Virus record (IMG/VR): IMGVR_UViG_3300045988_000173
Location: 1 to 5,687 of that record
DNA: 5,687 bases
Strand: one strand, 5' to 3'
Origin: a virus
Position 1 is the first letter of the stretch. Each line of letters opens with the position of its first letter. The position numbers were made by a program, and so were the translations under genes. Below the pieces are notes generated by a model that saw nothing but the letters and a program-made list of their open reading frames with translations, had not been told where the DNA came from and ran no database searches. Below are positions 1 through 5,687 of this stretch, piece after piece.

Positions 1-55
1 CAAGTCATTCAGACGTCCAGCACAGACTCGACGAGTCCACAGGGTAACACTGCAG
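1..55. repeat. Terminal direct repeat, copy 1 (identical to 5633-5687); signature of a circular contig overlap
   Basis: CAAGTCATTCAGACGTCCAGCACAGACTCGACGAGTCCACAGGGTAACACTGCAG occurs at both 1-55 and 5633-5687. The capsid reading frame is continuous across the implied junction. Confidence 0.95.
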
Positions 56-579
56 CATTCTCCATGACCACGATGAGCCGGAACATGGCAACATACAGCG
101 CAACGGAGCATGGCTTCATCATCGGTCTGGCAGCGGTGCGAGTTGATCACAGCTATCAGCAAGGCCTGTCCCGGCTGTGGACACGCAGCACACGCTTTTC
201 CTACTATGACCCGATGCTTGCAAACCTCGGTGAGCAAGCGGTGCTCAATCAGGAGATCTATGCACAGGGCAACGCCCAAGATGAAGAAGTCTTTGGCTAT
301 CAGGAAGCTTGGGCAGACTACCGATACCGGACAAACATGATCACAGGCGAAATGCGCAGCACCTACGCTCAGACTCTGGATGCTTGGCACTATGCCGACA
401 AATACAAAGAACTGCCAAAACTCTCAAGTGACTGGATTAAAGAAGGCACAGAGAACATTGACCGCACGATCGCAGTTCAAAGCGACAACTCCAGTCAATT
501 TATCTGCAACTTCTACTTCGACCAGACGTGGACAAGAGCAATGCCGATCTACAGCATCCCGGGCCTTGATACCATCTAA
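1..579 (+). CDS. VP1: Major capsid protein VP1, C-terminal part (5'-partial in this linearisation; stop TAA 577-579)
   Basis: Frame 1 is open from base 1 (QVIQTSSTDSTSPQGNTAAFSMTTMSRN...) and is the direct continuation of the 4589.. frame. Total length is 1044 + 579 nt = 540 aa plus stop. The M at 64 is an internal methionine, not a start. Confidence 0.93.
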   Translation, partial: QVIQTSSTDSTSPQGNTAAFSMTTMSRNMATYSATEHGFIIGLAAVRVDHSYQQGLSRLWTRSTRFSYYDPMLANLGEQAVLNQEIYAQGNAQDEEVFGYQEAWADYRYRTNMITGEMRSTYAQTLDAWHYADKYKELPKLSSDWIKEGTENIDRTIAVQSDNSSQFICNFYFDQTWTRAMPIYSIPGLDTI

Positions 580-591
580 GGAGGAAGCACA

Positions 592-1530
592 ATGGCAATC
601 GGGCTAATGGGCCTTGTCAAAGGCGGCCTAACTCTAGCAAACACATTATACAGCATATACAACAGCATAAAAGGGAGCACCTCCAGCGCAAAACAACAGG
701 GCACAATGCAAAACACAATCCAAAGCGGTACAACCATGGGAAACACCGCACAGGACACTACAAGCGCAGGTGGGAGCGTCCAGACCGGCAACACAAGCGC
801 ACTGGGAAATCTGCTGGCAACAGCACTCGGAACTCCGACCGGCAACAACGCTCAAAGCGCAGCGAACTTCAACGCAGCGAACGCAAAAACTGCCAACGAC
901 TTGCAGACCGGTACATGGATGATGGGCAATCTTCTCAACATGGGAAACACTCTGGCATCCAATGCAATGAGTGCAGCAAGCCAAACCAGCGCAATGCGGT
1001 ACAACTCAGCTGAGGCCAAAGCGCAAAGAGACTGGCAAGAGCGAATGGCCAACACGAGCTATCAAAGAGGCGTCGCAGACCTCAAAGCAGCGGGGTTGAA
1101 TCCTATCTTGGCAGCCTATAACGGCTATGGGGCGCAGACGCCATCAGGAGGCTATGGAAGTCTCGGTGGCGGTCAGACCTTCGCACACGCTCAGGCTCTG
1201 GCAGCACCAGCAGCCAAAAACGCGACCATGCAAGCAATGTATGACTACGGCAACAACACCGCACAGATCGTGCAGAACTTTCAGACGGCGATCAACAACG
1301 CAAAGCAAAGTTCTGACTACTGGACAGCTGAGCACCTCGAACAGATGCAACAGCAAACCGTAAGCAGCAGCGCAAAAACCGTGGGCCAGCTGGGCGAGCG
1401 AATGGACAGCACCACGCAGCAGGAGCAAGAAACCAAAGGCCACAAGTTCAAAAACGAAGGGCAACTTGACGCAAGCCTTGGAGGAAAAGGCCAGTTCAGC
1501 TTACTGCCGGGTCTTCCGATGTTGCCATAA
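592..1530 (+). CDS. VP2: Minor capsid / DNA pilot protein (gokushovirus VP2-like)
   Basis: AAGGAGG 578-584 lies 7 nt before ATG 592 and overlaps the VP1 stop. The protein has a hydrophobic N-terminus (MAIGLMGLVKGGLTLA), a long N/Q/T/G/A-rich low-complexity region, and the conserved block ERMANTSYQRGVADLKAAGLNPILA characteristic of microvirus VP2. It sits immediately after VP1. Confidence 0.8.
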   Translation: MAIGLMGLVKGGLTLANTLYSIYNSIKGSTSSAKQQGTMQNTIQSGTTMGNTAQDTTSAGGSVQTGNTSALGNLLATALGTPTGNNAQSAANFNAANAKTANDLQTGTWMMGNLLNMGNTLASNAMSAASQTSAMRYNSAEAKAQRDWQERMANTSYQRGVADLKAAGLNPILAAYNGYGAQTPSGGYGSLGGGQTFAHAQALAAPAAKNATMQAMYDYGNNTAQIVQNFQTAINNAKQSSDYWTAEHLEQMQQQTVSSSAKTVGQLGERMDSTTQQEQETKGHKFKNEGQLDASLGGKGQFSLLPGLPMLP

Positions 1531-1535
1531 AGTAG

Positions 1536-1564
1536 TTGACAAGGGGAGAAAAGAGGTGTATATT
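1536..1564 (+). promoter_or_regulatory. Sigma70-type promoter P1: TTGACA (1536-1541) - 17 nt - TATATT (1559-1564)
   Basis: Perfect -35, optimal 17-nt spacer and a 5/6 -10. It lies about 40 nt upstream of the RHH gene start and directly after the VP2 stop. Confidence 0.7.
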
Positions 1565-1602
1565 ATGAGTGTACTAATCACACACTTAGCTAGGAGGCTA
1601 GT

Positions 1603-1800
1603 ATGAGAACGCAAATCACGAAAAGATTTAATGTCAATTTGACACAAAAGGAAGAAAGAGCACTAGAGCTTCTGACGGAAGAATACGCTAATCGGAACTG
1701 GAAAGGAACCCAAAGCGACATCATCCGAGAGGCAATAGTAAGCTACTGCAAGGAATGTACCGGAATCGACATAAACAAATTCAGCAACATTTATCCATGA
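1603..1800 (+). CDS. Small ribbon-helix-helix (CopG/Arc/MetJ-like) DNA-binding protein, 65 aa
   Basis: AGGAGG 1592-1597 lies 5 nt before the ATG. The N-terminal KRFNVNLTQKEERALELLTEEY ... KGTQSDIIREAIVSY fits the RHH pattern: an alternating beta-strand, helix A, a G-x-T/S turn, then helix B. Compare CopG KRLTITLSESVLENLEKMAREMGLSKSAMISVALENY. Confidence 0.65.
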   Translation: MRTQITKRFNVNLTQKEERALELLTEEYANRNWKGTQSDIIREAIVSYCKECTGIDINKFSNIYP

Positions 1801-1829
1801 AGTTTTTTATGAAAACAGCAAAAATTGTG

Positions 1830-1874
1830 TCAGTAAGCCCCTATAAGATCAAGAGGCTTATAGGGGCTTACTGA
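1830..1874 (+). promoter_or_regulatory. Perfect 18-bp stem / 9-nt loop hairpin between the RHH gene and Rep
   Basis: TCAGTAAGCCCCTATAAG (1830-1847) is the exact reverse complement of CTTATAGGGGCTTACTGA (1857-1874), with loop ATCAAGAGG. No U-tract follows. The 3' arm abuts the Rep SD (AGGAGG 1876-1881). Confidence 0.85.
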
Positions 1875-1895
1875 GAGGAGGTGCAGCAAAACAAT

Positions 1896-3050
1896 ATGTC
1901 ATGCACAAGACCACTGATTAGATTCAGCGACGGAAGAGTCTGGAAGCTGAAAAAATTCCTAGAAGTCAACGACAAAGGGATAATAAGAGACTACTATGAC
2001 CAAGAAGCAGAAATCAAGAACGAAAAATATGTTTTAGAAGCTCTCAAGAGAAACCATGCGCAGCTGCTACCATGCGGACAGTGTCCAGCGTGCAAGATGA
2101 CAGCTGCATCAAGCTGGGCAAACAGAATGGAGATGGAACTGCCATATCATAAAAATGCGTGGTTTCTGACGCTGACATACGACGACGATCATGTACCGTG
2201 GAGCTACAATAACGAACTGGGCATAGACATAAACACAGGGGAAGTAACCGTAGAAAACCTCACGCTCAACTTCAAAGACCTGCAAGACTTCTGGAAACGC
2301 TTGAGAAGATACATGGAATACCATGGAATGGCAGAATATGAAATCATAGTGGAAGAAGACGGAACACAAAAGCTAAAGCCGAAATTCTGCTATTTCGCAA
2401 GCGGAGAGTATGGAGGTAAAACCAAAAGACCGCACTATCATGCAATCGCATACGATATACCAATCAAAGAAGACGAACTCAAAGTATACAAAAAGAAAAA
2501 CGGCATAGTCTACTACAATTGCGAATGGCTTAGCAAAATCTGGGGAAACGGTCATCTAGTAATAGCACCAGCTGAATGGAAAGCAATGGCCTATACAGCA
2601 AGGTACACCACAAAAAAGATATACGGCAAAGGAGCAAAAGAAAAGTATCTGGAAATGGGAATCCTTCCAGAAAAGTGCTTCATGAGCAAAAACCCGGCAA
2701 TTGGAACAAGATACTACTACGACCACGCAGCGGAAATCTACGAAAAGGACAAAATCCAGCTGAAAAACGGAAAAGTATGCAAACCACCAAGGTACTTTGA
2801 TAAACTCTTTGATTTAGAACACTCAGAAGCAAAACCACTATCCGATAAAGAAATAGAAGAAATGGAAGACACAACAATAAAAGCCGAATCTGAAGAACTG
2901 AAAGCAATCAAAAGAGAACGTCGCAGAATCGCAAACGACGCACTCTTTGCTCAGCTCAAGCAAACCGGCTTAACTATGCAAGAATACTATAACCTAAAAG
3001 ACGCAAAAATGCAAGAACGCTTTAAAAAACTTATCCGGGAGGAGATCTAG
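1896..3050 (+). CDS. VP4: Rolling-circle replication initiation protein (HUH endonuclease, Microviridae VP4 / gene A-like)
   Basis: Cys cluster CGQCPACK; motif I FLTLTYDD; HUH motif RPHYHAIAY; catalytic two-tyrosine motif AYTARYTTKK (Y-x3-Y-x2-K). The start is set at ATG 1896 (MSCTRPLIRF, a typical VP4 N-terminus). The track's GTG 1881 lies within the SD itself. The 14-nt spacing from the SD to ATG 1896 is longish, so the start remains uncertain. Confidence 0.93.
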   Translation: MSCTRPLIRFSDGRVWKLKKFLEVNDKGIIRDYYDQEAEIKNEKYVLEALKRNHAQLLPCGQCPACKMTAASSWANRMEMELPYHKNAWFLTLTYDDDHVPWSYNNELGIDINTGEVTVENLTLNFKDLQDFWKRLRRYMEYHGMAEYEIIVEEDGTQKLKPKFCYFASGEYGGKTKRPHYHAIAYDIPIKEDELKVYKKKNGIVYYNCEWLSKIWGNGHLVIAPAEWKAMAYTARYTTKKIYGKGAKEKYLEMGILPEKCFMSKNPAIGTRYYYDHAAEIYEKDKIQLKNGKVCKPPRYFDKLFDLEHSEAKPLSDKEIEEMEDTTIKAESEELKAIKRERRRIANDALFAQLKQTGLTMQEYYNLKDAKMQERFKKLIREEI

Positions 3051-3116
3051 CGCTCGCGCGGGGGTAAACCAGAGAAAACCGAAAGTCAGCATAAAGAACG
3101 GCCAATAGAGGACACT

Positions 3117-3152
3117 GGACGGCGTAGTCACGAAAAGCTACGCCGTCCTTTT
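3117..3152 (+). terminator. Rho-independent terminator downstream of Rep
   Basis: GGACGGCGTAG (3117-3127) pairs with CTACGCCGTCC (3138-3148) to give an 11-bp perfect GC-rich stem with a 10-nt loop, followed by TTTTCATT. It lies 67 nt after the Rep stop. Confidence 0.75.
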
Positions 3153-3201
3153 CATTCGGCGCACCAGCGCCGACCGGACGGCCATCTAGGAAAAATTCTG
3201 C

Positions 3202-3230
3202 TTGACAAGTGTATGTTTTAGGTGTATAAT
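3202..3230 (+). promoter_or_regulatory. Sigma70-type promoter P2: TTGACA (3202-3207) - 17 nt - TATAAT (3225-3230)
   Basis: Both hexamers match consensus perfectly with a 17-nt spacer. It lies about 40 nt upstream of ATG 3272. It shares TTGACAAG and AGGTGTATA with P1 at identical spacing. Confidence 0.8.
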
Positions 3231-3271
3231 AAAGATGTAAGAAGAGCACACCACAAAATAGGAGGCACACC

Positions 3272-3430
3272 ATGAAAAGCTACTATGAAGAAGAAGTTGA
3301 AAACTGTGCAGCAGCACTATATGACGGTGGATGGAGAAGCGAAGACCGAGAGCAGATAAAAAAAGAGTACAACATGGATGACGAATGGACAAACGCAATC
3401 TGTAAAAAACTCAAAGAATACGAAAGATAA
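3272..3430 (+). CDS. Small acidic hypothetical protein, 52 aa (below the ORF-track length cutoff)
   Basis: AGGAGG 3260-3265 lies 6 nt before ATG 3272. Hand translation: MKSYYEEEVENCAAALYDGGWRSEDREQIKKEYNMDDEWTNAICKKLKEYER, stop TAA 3428-3430. It has 14 D/E against 9 K/R. It has its own consensus promoter and sits between two terminator-like elements. Confidence 0.6.
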   Translation: MKSYYEEEVENCAAALYDGGWRSEDREQIKKEYNMDDEWTNAICKKLKEYER

Positions 3431-3433
3431 ACC

Positions 3434-3482
3434 AAAAAACGTGAGATTGACGAAAGTTGACCTTGCGTTTTTTTTTTTTTTT
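3434..3482 (+). terminator. Candidate intrinsic terminator: A6 - imperfect hairpin with GAAA loop - T15
   Basis: AAAAAA (3434-3439), then an imperfect stem 3440-3451/3456-3467 closed on a GAAA tetraloop (3452-3455), then 15 consecutive T (3468-3482). The stem needs several G-U pairs and has one mismatch, so it is weak. The long U-tract is the main argument. Confidence 0.4.
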
Positions 3483-3490
3483 GGTAAAAT
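3463..3490 (+). promoter_or_regulatory. Candidate promoter P3 for the structural-gene operon: TTGCGT - 16 nt (mostly T15) - TGgTAAAAT extended -10
   Basis: TG at 3482-3483, one base, then TAAAAT 3485-3490 fits the extended -10 TGnTATAAT. A weak -35 TTGCGT lies at 3463-3468. A better TTGACC at 3457-3462 would give a 22-nt spacer. It is followed by a leader of about 100 nt and then a run of SD-led genes. Confidence 0.4.
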
Positions 3491-3594
3491 CGACATGAGG
3501 GGACTGGCAGCGAAATGTAAAGGAGGAATGCTCTGCCTCCACTGTCAGAAACCTTCTATTTGCACAAAAATATGAAAAGAAAGGAGGTGCTGCC

Positions 3595-3738
3595 ATGATA
3601 ACTTTGAAAGACATCCGCGGGATTTTTAATCAGCTGAGGAAGATCCTTGCGATGCTGGACAAGATCTATCACACCATAGGACTGGATAAGGAGGAAGAAT
3701 ATGGCTCACAGAATGCCGGTCAATCCAAAAAAGGATAA
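3595..3738 (+). CDS. Small hypothetical protein, 47 aa, heptad-repeat (coiled-coil-like) N-terminal helix and polar tail
   Basis: AAGGAGGT 3581-3588 lies 6 nt before ATG 3595. Translation: MITLKDIRGIFNQLRKILAMLDKIYHTIGLDKEEEYGSQNAGQSKKG, stop TAA 3736-3738. Hydrophobic residues fall at 7/10-11/14/17-18/21/24-25/28. It overlaps the next gene by 38 nt. Confidence 0.5.
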   Translation: MITLKDIRGIFNQLRKILAMLDKIYHTIGLDKEEEYGSQNAGQSKKG

Positions 3739-3820
3739 GAGAATCTTCACCAATACCGCAAAGAAGACGAAAAAAATCAACGTCAATCCGAAGCCGTCGC
3801 GCGGCGGCATCCGTCTGTAA
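3701..3820 (+). CDS. Small highly basic DNA-binding/packaging protein (phiX174 J-like / gokushovirus ORF8-like), 39 aa
   Basis: AAGGAGG 3688-3694 lies 6 nt before ATG 3701. Translation: MAHRMPVNPKKDKRIFTNTAKKTKKINVNPKPSRGGIRL, stop TAA 3818-3820. It has 12 K/R in 39 aa, and the KR.F..TA ... RGGIRL C-terminus is typical of microvirus DNA-condensing proteins. Confidence 0.8.
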   Translation: MAHRMPVNPKKDKRIFTNTAKKTKKINVNPKPSRGGIRL

Positions 3821-3832
3821 AGGAGAATCATC

Positions 3833-4096
3833 ATGGAATTTCAGGTATACGCAGTAAAAGACGAACTGTCTGGTATCTTCGGCAACTTGATGGTGGTCAA
3901 CGAAAAAGTGGCCGATCGGACCTTCAAATGGATGGCACAGGAGATGGAGAAAGCCGACTGTGAGGATAAGCGAGTCTATCTTCTGGGCAAGTACGACAAC
4001 GAAAGCGGCCAGATCAAGCCGCTGGCGCTGCCGATGCTCATGTACAACATCGAACTCATGAAAAAGGAACAGCTCAATGAAAGTAAGAATCTTTAA
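3833..4096 (+). CDS. Conserved microvirus nonstructural protein (gokushovirus VP5/ORF5-like), 87 aa
   Basis: AAGGAG 3820-3825 lies 7 nt before the ATG. The pattern M.F.VYAVKDE.SG.FGN.M...N...A.R.F ... Y.LG.YD.E.G.I resembles the small ORF5-family protein found beside VP3 in gokushoviruses. This assignment is by pattern memory only. Confidence 0.6.
   Translation: MEFQVYAVKDELSGIFGNLMVVNEKVADRTFKWMAQEMEKADCEDKRVYLLGKYDNESGQIKPLALPMLMYNIELMKKEQLNESKNL
4019..4034 (+). repeat. 16-nt perfect direct repeat, copy 1 (CCGCTGGCGCTGCCGA), inside the VP5-like gene
   Basis: Identical to 4116-4131. With flanks, 19 of 19 positions match except one (AAg/AAa). Here it reads PLALP in the 3833 frame. Confidence 0.9.
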
Positions 4097-4592
4097 GCCC
4101 TACGAGGACGAAAAACCGCTGGCGCTGCCGAACAACCCAGGCAACCGGTTTGAGCCGGAGTACAAAGAGCGGTACGACGACCGAGGACAGCCGTATCTGG
4201 AAAAAGTGGGCGAAGTGGACACCTACGAGAAAATCCAGAGCTATAAGGACGAATGCGACGTCATGACAATACTGAGCCGGTACGCTGCCGGCGACGAAAG
4301 CGTGCTGACAAAACCGGGCTGGTACATCGACACCAGCAAGCTACCGCAGACCTACACCGAATACCTTAACCTGATAAAAGAGAAACGCGAACAGTTCGAC
4401 CAGCTGCCGCTTGCTATCCGGGCAAAGTTCAATATGAACGTCGAAGAATGGATGGCAACCGCAGGTGAAGAAAGCTGGATGAGCAAGATGGGCTTCAAAA
4501 TTCAGCAGGATCAGAATGAACAAAAAAAGCCCAATAAAAAGCCCAATCCAGACACGGATGAAACTGTGCAAAAAGGAGAAAACAAGGAATGA
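4077..4592 (+). CDS. VP3: Internal scaffolding protein (gokushovirus VP3-like), 171 aa
   Basis: Blocks YEKIQSYKDECDVMTILSRYAAGDESVL and QLPLAIRAKFNMNVEEWM match the VP3 scaffold family pattern. It lies immediately upstream of, and is translationally coupled (ATGA) to, VP1. It overlaps the upstream gene by 20 nt. The SD is weak (AAGGAA). Confidence 0.85.
   Translation: MKVRIFKPYEDEKPLALPNNPGNRFEPEYKERYDDRGQPYLEKVGEVDTYEKIQSYKDECDVMTILSRYAAGDESVLTKPGWYIDTSKLPQTYTEYLNLIKEKREQFDQLPLAIRAKFNMNVEEWMATAGEESWMSKMGFKIQQDQNEQKKPNKKPNPDTDETVQKGENKE
4116..4131 (+). repeat. 16-nt perfect direct repeat, copy 2 (CCGCTGGCGCTGCCGA), inside VP3
   Basis: Identical to 4019-4034 and 97 nt downstream of it. Here it reads PLALP in the 4077 frame, which is shifted +1 relative to copy 1. 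Confidence 0.9.
4524..4547 (+). repeat. Perfect 2 x 12-nt tandem repeat AAAAAGCCCAAT in the VP3 C-terminal tail
   Basis: 4524-4535 equals 4536-4547. It encodes KKPNKKPN in the low-complexity basic tail of VP3. Confidence 0.85.
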
Positions 4593-5687
4593 ACCGAAAC
4601 GCTGAGCAGCATTACAACCAAGTGCCTCATGCAAACGTACCGCGTGCGAGATTCAAGCGAGATTATAGCCTGCTAACGACCATGAACGAGGGCGATCTGG
4701 TCCCGATCTACTGTGACGAAGTACTGCCGGCAGACACGGCAAAAATCGACCTCAATGCACTTATGCGCATGAGCACTCCGCTGTATCCTGTCATGGATAA
4801 CTGTTACTGTGACTTTTACTTCTTCTTCGTACCGTCGCGGCTGCTGTGGGAGCACTTCGAAAACCTCATGGGCCAGAACGACTCGACCTTCTGGGCCGAA
4901 AAAGTAGAGTACACGACTCCGAAAACGACCGCACCAAGTGGCGGCTGGAACGTGGGCACGCTGGCGGATTACTTCGGCATACCGACCGGAATAGAAAACC
5001 TTCAGGTGAACAGCTTACCTTTCAGAGCATATGCCAAAATCTGGAACGAGTGGTTCAGAGACGAAAACCTGCAGCAGCCTGTCACGATGAGCAAAACGGA
5101 CGCCACGACCGCAGGAAGCAACGCAGGAACGGCACTGACGGACGCCGAAGCCGGAGGACTGCCGCTCAAAGTCTGTAAATACAAGGACTACTTTACAAGC
5201 TGCCTGCCGAATCCTCAGAAAGGCGAGACTGTGACACTGCCGATGACAGGAGCAGCACCGATTTATGGATACGGCACAGCAAGCCTCAAGGAAAAACTGG
5301 ACAACGAAGACCTAGAATTGATAACAAGCTTCATACCTAACTTTGCAGGCATAAACGGAGATGATACAAGCGGAGCGAAACCAGCGCAGGTATACACCGA
5401 AAAAGACGATAGTCTGCACCCAGTACTTGGAGCAGACATGAGCAACGTAACGGCCGCGACCGTCAACGAACTCCGACAGGCTATCGCAGTGCAGCACATC
5501 TTAGAGAGGGATGCACGAACCGGCACACGGTACAAAGAAATCCTGAAAGGAGCTTGGGGCGTCACCAGTCCGGATGCACGACTTGACCGATCGGAATACA
5601 TCGGCGGGTATCGACTGCCTATCAACATCAATCAAGTCATTCAGACGTCCAGCACAGACTCGACGAGTCCACAGGGTAACACTGCAG
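4589..5687 (+). CDS. VP1: Major capsid protein (Microviridae F/VP1), N-terminal part; continues through the circular junction into 1..579
   Basis: ATG 4589 overlaps the VP3 stop (ATGA, 4589-4592). Hand translation is open to the window end: MNRNAEQHYNQVPHANVPRARFKRDYSLLTTMNEGDLVPIYCDEVLPADT..MDNCYCDFYFFFVPSRLLWEHF..LPFRAYAKIWNEWFRDENLQ..KYKDYFTSCLP..VNELRQAIAVQHILERDARTGTRYKEILKGAWGV..DRSEYIGG. These are typical microvirus capsid motifs. It is absent from the ORF track only because no stop falls inside the window. 5633 is equivalent to 1 and is a codon start, so it joins in frame to 1..579. Confidence 0.95.
   Translation, partial: MNRNAEQHYNQVPHANVPRARFKRDYSLLTTMNEGDLVPIYCDEVLPADTAKIDLNALMRMSTPLYPVMDNCYCDFYFFFVPSRLLWEHFENLMGQNDSTFWAEKVEYTTPKTTAPSGGWNVGTLADYFGIPTGIENLQVNSLPFRAYAKIWNEWFRDENLQQPVTMSKTDATTAGSNAGTALTDAEAGGLPLKVCKYKDYFTSCLPNPQKGETVTLPMTGAAPIYGYGTASLKEKLDNEDLELITSFIPNFAGINGDDTSGAKPAQVYTEKDDSLHPVLGADMSNVTAATVNELRQAIAVQHILERDARTGTRYKEILKGAWGVTSPDARLDRSEYIGGYRLPININQVIQTSSTDSTSPQGNTA
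5633..5687. repeat. Terminal direct repeat, copy 2 (identical to 1-55)
   Basis: Exact 55-nt match to the window start. It implies a circle of 5,632 nt. Confidence 0.95.

Follow-up and report, generated by a model that had tools for sequence, protein, structure and literature searches.

The DNA analysed here (positions 1 to 5,687 of the IMG/VR virus record IMGVR_UViG_3300045988_000173, referred to at its full length of 5,687 nucleotides (nt) as the window) is a gokushovirus genome, complete and circular at 5,632 nt to judge from the identity of its first and last 55 bases, and all its genes are carried by the + strand. Directly upstream of the gene for the HUH rolling-circle initiator (Rep/VP4) lies a very small open reading frame (ORF), rhh, which encodes a protein of 65 amino acids (aa) with a ribbon-helix-helix (RHH) pattern, is preceded by a near-consensus promoter (P1) and an AGGAGG Shine-Dalgarno sequence, and is separated by 95 nt from the Rep start codon at 1896. 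An initial annotation of this DNA, made from the sequence alone, had described the promoter, the AGGAGG, the ORF and the spacer, and each was found exactly where it had been placed; the length given for the spacer was right, but the 18-bp hairpin at 1830-1874 within it had been overlooked. To the reading that rhh and rep constitute a CopG-like autoregulated operon, in which the RHH protein would repress P1 and buffer the dosage of Rep, and for which a second promoter (P2) is a possible further target, we assign a probability of about one half.

Purifying selection shows the rhh ORF to be a real gene. Over 35 distinct sequences the median dN/dS is 0.29 for all usable pairs and 0.20 for the pairs with dS<1, dN and dS relative to the closest relative are 0.019 and 0.176, and synonymous sites are near saturation with the core of the protein retained. 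The Ka/Ks comparison that had been proposed as a check of coding therefore yields a ratio of ~0.2-0.3, i.e. purifying selection, and the position of the gene is likewise as the initial annotation had described it. The order VP2-rhh-VP4, all on the same strand, is present in 35/35 related genomes first collected and in 5 genomes found later, such that the suggested survey of relatives for an ORF at the VP2/VP4 junction recovered it in all 40 rhh-clade genomes found, in each case directly upstream of Rep and in the same orientation.

At the family level, profile comparisons confirm that the encoded protein belongs to the CopG-type RHH family. The homologues fall into 11 clusters in a collection made at 90% identity, and a profile search of 1.84 billion representatives returned 37 clusters, all with a length of 55-125 aa. 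Pfam RHH_1 (the CopG family) is matched by 18 of 42 family members, for instance by P0021 (22.4 bits versus a gathering cut-off of 20.5, covering model positions 3-39 of 39), which itself belongs to the rhh family with E = 8.7e-14 to the family profile. The top PDB matches of that profile are TTHA0139 (E = 0.009) and ParD, and hhalign aligns its residues 2-42 in register with CopG (pairwise E = 2.6e-4); the profile comparison showed no detectable similarity to Arc repressor. The alignment is characterized by an N-terminal strand KR.N.NLT (KRFNVNLT in the window), a helix, a variable loop and a second helix that starts from an invariant SDIIR; the residues K7, R8, N10, N12, L13, T14, S38, D39, I40, I41 and R42 are invariant among close relatives, and the AlphaFold2 (AF2) monomer model of the window protein has helices at ~15-30 and ~37-53 (pLDDT 70). 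RHH proteins are obligate dimers, the paired strands of which enter the major groove and bind DNA in a sequence-specific manner. In P0022 (125 aa) the RHH unit is naturally duplicated in tandem within a single polypeptide, and its AF2 model shows strand-helix-helix twice, in a single-chain pseudo-dimer topology of low confidence (pLDDT 54). There is no PHROG family for rhh, and the sole prior recognition of the family is the automated name (Arc/MetJ-type RHH regulator) that the JGI pipeline gave to P0006. The ParD match, together with a weak similarity to Pfam CcdA, might suggest an orphan antitoxin-type protein without a function in phage gene control; however, no toxin family was found among the window ORFs and the gene that follows rhh is Rep, and a spurious ORF is contradicted by the clear signal of purifying selection and by the strictly kept gene order, such that we consider either explanation highly improbable.

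Sites with at least 11/12 matches to the sigma-70 consensus occur twice on the + strand of the whole genome (P1 at 1536 and P2 at 3202) and not at all on the - strand, versus a mean of 0.033 in 2000 shuffled genomes (P(>=2) = 0.001), which puts the near-consensus promoter noted earlier beyond chance. P1 is present in 35/35 related genomes, and P2 is conserved in relatives as well. From 1565 to 3201 the + strand has no sigma-70-like site that matches 9/12 or more consensus positions, so Rep is without a recognizable promoter of its own, in line with the earlier remark that none could be found for it in the 95-nt spacer. Because there are only two strong promoters, none for Rep, and an intrinsic terminator after Rep, the genome reads as two putative transcription units, namely one from P1 via rhh and rep to the terminator, and one from P2 via the small ORFs to VP5, VP3, VP1 and VP2 (Table 1). 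We infer that rhh and rep are co-transcribed.

Table 1. Features of the window, and copies of the spacer hairpin in other genomes (positions refer to the window unless another genome is named).
Feature	Position	Strand	Details and basis
VP1	4589 across junction to 579	+	ORF list and Pfam/PHROG searches
VP2	592-1530	+	ORF list and Pfam/PHROG searches
Promoter P1	1536-1564	+	TTGACA 1536-1541, 17-nt spacer, TATATT 1559-1564; 11/12 consensus, promoter scan
Near-invariant block over -10 region and 5' leader (candidate operator and/or 5' mRNA stem-loop)	1549-1590	+	conservation
rhh Shine-Dalgarno	1592-1597	+	AGGAGG, 5 nt before ATG 1603; read from sequence
rhh, 65-aa RHH protein	1603-1800	+	dN/dS, family profile, RHH_1 matches
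Conserved motif GCAACATTTATCCAT	1784-1798	+	intergenic alignments; non-coding in most relatives
Origin-like hairpin	1825-1874	either-strand element	flank TTGTGTCA 1825-1832, arms 1830-1847/1857-1874, loop ATCAAGAGG 1848-1856; perfect inverted repeat
Rep Shine-Dalgarno	1875-1881	+	GAGGAGG, immediately 3' of hairpin; read from sequence
Rep/VP4, HUH rolling-circle initiator	1896-3050	+	PHYHAI 2431-2448, YTARYTTKK 2593-2619
Intrinsic terminator 3' of Rep	3117-3152	+	12-bp G+C-rich stem, then TTTT; terminator scan
Promoter P2, for small ORFs and structural genes	3202-3230	+	TTGACA-17-TATAAT; 12/12 consensus, promoter scan
Basic J/VP8-like protein, 39 aa	3701-3820	+	among small ORFs after Rep
VP5	3833-4096	+	ORF list and Pfam/PHROG searches
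VP3	4077-4592	+	ORF list and Pfam/PHROG searches
Hairpin copy in L179 (Chp2)	2904-2941
Hairpin copy in L183	2796-2857
Hairpin copy in L184	2742-2806
Hairpin copy in L185	2875-2938
Hairpin copy in L177	2727-2792
Hairpin copy in L178	2715-2751

The -10 region and 5' leader of P1 form a near-invariant block. The consensus TTGACA-N17-TATAWT, followed by ATGRGTGTA...AATC..AC.C, is found in 35/35 related genomes, and in a 33-genome alignment the positions 1549-1573 make up the second most conserved stretch of 25 nt (0.949 versus a genome mean of 0.744). The conservation of the block equals that of the best coding sequence, and the block is invariant even though rhh itself diverges to ~40% identity. 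Within it, GTGTA is found at 1556-1560 and 1569-1573, and 1566-1573 forms an inverted repeat with 1581-1588, in which one pair has changed in a compensatory way (A-U to G-C) and some wobble pairing is seen, the remainder being invariant; this repeat could serve as an operator, as a 5' mRNA stem-loop, or in both roles. GTGTA stands at offsets 21 and 34 from TTGACA in P1 as well as in P2, P2 holds a third copy at offset 8, and all four copies on the + strand of the genome lie within P1 and P2. The likeness of the two promoters extends beyond the hexamers (TTGACAAG..AGGTGTATA.TA..G.TGTA; window 1535-1595 versus 3201-3260). In search of a host or prophage, bacterial genomes were scanned for the conserved 19-mer, which gave 25 matches, versus ~17 estimated by chance, none of them beside microvirus genes and most in ordinary bacterial promoters. 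A candidate dif/XerCD site in P1, TGTATATTATG (1557-1567), was rejected as a chance match, since it shares only an 11-nt identity with the E. coli dif site, and neither Xer arm is otherwise matched.

In the mechanism that we propose, P1, rhh, the origin-like hairpin, rep and the terminator would act as one two-gene transcription unit; RHH dimers would bind the invariant block with its GTGTA motifs and inverted repeat, over the -10 region and start site of P1; and this binding would throttle the synthesis of both RHH and Rep, and so buffer the dosage of Rep in the way that CopG acts on RepB. Because P2 has the same motifs at the same offsets, it is a possible second target. The identity of the operator and the repression at P1 are, like co-transcription, inferred. 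Support for the mechanism comes from the reality of the gene, the RHH fold family, the gene order (40/40), the anatomy of promoter and terminator, the conservation of the P1 block, the shared GTGTA motifs, and the recurrence of an RHH_1-like ORF ahead of VP4 in MG945221.

The resemblance between P1 and P2 could also be taken as a sign of a wider role, in which the RHH protein acts on both promoters as a genome-wide switch that times early (rep) versus late (structural) expression, or as an immunity repressor that silences superinfecting genomes and holds a carrier state. The sequence that P1 and P2 share, the GTGTA offsets of 21 and 34, the confinement of the four + strand copies to the two promoters, and the pseudolysogenic state reported for other gokushoviruses (PMC7062461) would all fit such a role. 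Nevertheless, the similarity may be no more than shared ancestry of the two strong promoters, a distance of 13 nt between the repeats does not correspond to a helical repeat, the genome has no integrase, and the sole resemblance to dif, at 11 nt, falls short of the 15 nt used as criterion for the gokushovirus dif motif (PMC7062461). We consider the switch unlikely, and a role of rhh in a carrier state or in pseudolysogeny is pure speculation.

Whatever the protein binds, rhh is a clade-specific accessory gene of gut gokushoviruses, to judge from its distribution, and lies outside the canonical VP1-VP5 and VP8 set. A tblastn search (E<=1e-3) of 50,697 phage records recovered the protein in 3 of them, with a further, divergent copy in MG945569, and the gene is unannotated in the four GenBank entries concerned (KX513873, MG945797, MG945186 and MG945569), which is in keeping with the earlier statement that an RHH protein is not part of the canonical gene set. 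In 22 other gokushovirus genomes the RHH profile matched a single ORF. The possibility that the 65-aa ORF corresponds to the 'VP8 putative DNA-binding protein' of the enterogokushoviruses was rejected: the widespread basic protein is the 39-aa J/VP8-like one, which was found in 721 phage records versus 3 for the RHH protein. A different ORF of 82 aa (MNDKTAAIRLSEKEFEKLEMLKTAYGISNTSELIRMLIRK...), annotated as 'hypothetical', lies upstream of VP4 in MG945221.1 (295-543) and matches RHH_1 with E = 0.007. This looks like a second, independent case of an RHH gene in front of Rep, and because the ORF is a different one, the arrangement would have arisen more than once.

Within its clade, rhh behaves as an exchangeable cassette between conserved blocks of DNA, because both rhh (41-69% identity) and Rep (51-65%) diverge between genomes with near-identical VP1 and VP2 (in L007, L008, L023, L025 and L034, for instance, VP2 is 93-96% identical), and because one type of Rep (with its hairpin) was found together with three very different RHH types. 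Since the capsid genes remain near-identical while Rep and RHH diverge, the replication module and the rhh cassette would therefore recombine independently of the capsid module, and the crossover points are likely the invariant P1 block and the hairpin. The G+C content of the window is 52-55% in the structural genes and 40-44% across 1500-3750 (rhh, rep and small ORFs). One relative, L035 (IMGVR_UViG_3300006298_000061, 6963 nt), is longer than unit length and has two different Rep genes, at 74-1345 (64% identical to the window Rep) and 5671-6849 (51%); either two related phages were joined in the assembly, or this genome has Rep genes of two types.

The hairpin between rhh and rep has a perfect stem of 18 bp and a loop of 9 nt, which reads CCTCTTGAT on the - strand, and it occupies half of the spacer. 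As DNA it folds with -18.8 kcal/mol (z = -6.9). Among 22 distinct sequences, compensatory changes were found in 14 of the 18 pairs, with 95.7% of cells paired and hardly any G-U, and the loop TCAAGA and the 5' flank TTGTGTCA are invariant. A covariance model of the hairpin of the window clade finds the same element in gokushoviruses without rhh, and in Chp2, bajarodmic virus 446, Dulem virus 117, tortoise microvirus 68 and others it lies antisense to the genes, i.e. opposite to the window. More generally, gokushoviruses share a hairpin with the flank TGTCA and the loop xTCAAGxxG, on either strand relative to the genes. One strand of the loop reads (A/T)CTTGAT (ACTTGAT in Chp2, bajarodmic virus 446 and tortoise microvirus 68), and its CTTG^AT matches the nick site in gene A of phiX174, CAACTTG^ATATT (position 4306 in the RefSeq annotation); the window clade has this phiX174-like motif on the - strand, so that it is antisense with respect to every gene. 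In phiX174, by contrast, the nick site lies inside gene A and not in a hairpin. Because the sequence is conserved and yet its orientation with respect to transcription varies, the hairpin must act at the level of the DNA. It is probably the gokushovirus origin of replication, for which the literature search yielded no earlier description. A role as intrinsic terminator or attenuator was rejected, given that a + strand T-run follows the hairpin in none of the genomes and that it is placed antisense in other lineages. The hairpin is no Rfam family, and no known RNA family or tRNA was found; a scan of IMG/VR with a loose hairpin pattern gave mostly chance matches in large contigs.

Several observations weigh against an autoregulated rhh-rep operon. 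The RHH assignment that had been made for the 65-aa ORF is significant for the family (RHH_1, P0021, alignment to CopG), but the window protein alone stays below significance in Pfam (RHH_3, E = 0.35). The suggested check by profile and structure had a similarly mixed outcome: TTHA0139, the register with CopG and the two helices came out in favour, whereas a Foldseek comparison of the AF2 monomer and the P0022 model with the PDB gave nothing below E = 1. The latter is unsurprising, because these are monomer models of an obligate dimer; the confidence of the RHH monomer models is low to moderate. As the DNA-reading residues and the candidate operator are both invariant, no signal of co-evolution is possible between them. 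Strings near-identical to the -10/+1 region occur in bacterial genomes at about chance rate, often as promoters, and for that reason the P1 block alone is no proof of an operator; it could equally be a strong promoter with a 5' mRNA stem-loop. A stable hairpin between rhh and rep might, moreover, uncouple the two genes.

The last point of this kind concerns the C-terminus. The C-terminal tip of bacterial SSB docks replication and repair proteins, and in E. coli this tip is the hexapeptide DDDIPF (PMC5872125). Several RHH homologues end exactly in acidic residues followed by LPF (e.g. EEEDLPF or DDDDDLPF, compare DDDIPF/DDDLPF), namely ~8 of the 37 family representatives and 8 of the 35 genomes, although in the rhh family the tip is joined to a dsDNA-binding RHH domain and not to an OB fold. 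This weighs against a plain repressor, because repression would not need such a tip, and it points to an additional part for these proteins in replication. The homologues in question are P0006, P0027, P0034, P0035, P0037, P0043, P0046 and P0048, and the loci L002, L003, L005, L006 and L010-L013; other subfamilies terminate in GYTFANEWK. The window protein is without the LPF tail as a result of a ~66-nt deletion relative to the tail-bearing genomes. After a deletion, the 3' end of the window's rhh ORF takes in the conserved motif GCAACATTTATCCAT.

An SSB-like tip on about a fifth of the homologues (8/37 representatives) would be easier to understand if the RHH protein were an origin accessory, comparable to the RHH proteins of relaxosomes (MobC, TraY, NikA), that binds beside the hairpin (e.g. 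at the TTGTGTCA flank) and helps Rep to melt or nick the DNA, or recruits host replication proteins, the autoregulation of P1 being a by-product. TraY and NikA are RHH accessory proteins of relaxosomes with a likewise arrangement. An RHH gene upstream of that for a HUH nickase, in an autoregulated bicistronic operon, is the rule for relaxosomes, as in mobC-nic of RA3, which lies next to the nick site (PMC4175270). In addition, rhh adjoins a hairpin that behaves as an origin at the DNA level, and rhh cassettes are swapped independently of the Rep type with the flanking DNA blocks constant. Still, rhh is located in a phage replication module and not in one for conjugation, and only its proximity to the hairpin is observed here; the window protein has no LPF tail; most gokushoviruses have the hairpin without an RHH gene, which implies that RHH is dispensable for origin function; the same type of Rep and hairpin pairs with three very different RHH types; and the DNA next to the hairpin has, apart from a single GTGT, no repeated sites of the RHH type. 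Altogether, a role as origin accessory seems to us rather improbable.

The orientation of the hairpin is connected to the composition of the strands. Genomes with the orientation of Chp2 have T-rich coding strands, with a genome AT skew of -0.03 to -0.25, and a T content at four-fold sites of VP1 of 43-76% (AT skew -0.32 to -0.95; 11 genomes). For genomes with the orientation of the window (i.e. the window clade, KT264785, MN379640, MG945221, MG883722, MG945627, PP511733 and PQ007383), the corresponding values are +0.23 to +0.41 for the genome and +0.18 to +0.64 for the four-fold sites of VP1 (14 genomes). The strand with the CTTG^AT motif is always the T-rich one, and the sign of the synonymous AT skew of VP1 flips with the orientation of the hairpin; the two classes are interleaved on a (rough) neighbour-joining tree of VP1. 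The genomes phiMH2K, L106 and L117, in which the hairpin is weak or imperfect, are ambiguous and do not fit the rule cleanly. The simplest reading of these data would be that the viral-strand origin is this hairpin, and that it identifies which of the two strands is single-stranded for part of the time; in the lineage of the window this would be the antisense strand. Because hairpin orientation tracks the synonymous AT skew, with the motif on the T-rich strand, we tentatively suggest, at somewhat less than even odds, that the viral-strand origin is inverted in this lineage, and that the strand complementary to the mRNA is nicked, displaced and packaged. These phages would then be the first negative-sense Microviridae; no negative-sense microviruses were found described in the literature search. 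The rhh-P1 cassette would have been inserted beside the origin, to which the SSB-like tip of the relatives' RHH proteins could bring host replisome proteins. If hairpin orientation predicts which strand carries the mutational signature of ssDNA, as it appears to do, the packaged polarity becomes testable in hundreds of uncultured genomes.

The closest known counterpart of the CopG-like operon that we favour is that of plasmid pMV158, in which copG and repB are co-transcribed from Pcr and repressed by CopG (PMC2724298). The two have in common a very small RHH gene directly upstream of that for a HUH Rep, on the same strand and with one promoter ahead, and the rhh family profile aligns to CopG over its whole length, with members that match RHH_1, the 'copG family'. 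At the same time, the window Rep is of the microvirus/inovirus type (REP_ORF2-G2P/phrog_942) and not of the plasmid type; the origin-like hairpin is located between rhh and rep, whereas the plasmid origin lies upstream of the operon; and the 65-aa RHH protein has a C-terminal extension that is variable across the family, versus the 45 aa of CopG. We also considered an antisense RNA like RNAII of pMV158 and rejected it, as the - strand lacks both a promoter-like site near 1880-1960 and a conserved terminator tail after the hairpin. The layout of rhh and rep works like CopG-RepB but is not a member of the pMV158 circuit, because it has no antisense RNA arm, another family of Rep, and the probable origin between the genes. 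In terms of the initial annotation, which had compared the locus with that circuit, the gene order and the single promoter stand, but the parallel does not extend to the antisense RNA, the Rep family or the position of the probable origin. Small RHH repressors with operators that overlap promoters are also found in phage P22 (Arc and Mnt), but P22 is a temperate dsDNA phage with another circuit.

To our knowledge, microviruses are taken as minimal phages that lack dedicated transcription regulators and whose expression is considered hard-wired, through promoters, terminators and mRNA stability. The literature search returned no paper that links RHH or CopG, or any dedicated regulator, with the Microviridae. 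If rhh is a regulator in front of Rep, the family would have its first control gene of this kind, in a replication-control module of known type that is not known from these viruses. Such a gene would also offer a way to approach the restraint of replication in gut gokushoviruses, a matter of relevance to the carrier or pseudolysogenic states that have been reported (PMC7062461). The same 350 nt hold the candidate origin of replication of the gokushoviruses, and we rank the origin-like hairpin and its inverted polarity as the more surprising content of the region, beyond rhh.

As to the remainder of the genome, the closest GenBank records are gokushoviruses from pig and human gut, with ~80% identity across part of the genome. 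Rep matches Pfam REP_ORF2-G2P (E = 5e-12) and phrog_942 (E = 1e-96); its ATG (MSCTRP...) is the start kept in relatives, and an alternative GTG start at 1881 overlaps the Rep Shine-Dalgarno sequence. Two small ORFs between Rep and the structural genes, at 3272-3430 (52 aa) and 3595-3738 (47 aa), are without a Pfam or PHROG match and are conserved in several relatives at 80-96% identity. Downstream of the former, the window has a run of 17 T at 3467-3483, of which a shorter T-rich stretch is retained in relatives, where it translates as LAFFFF in one frame.

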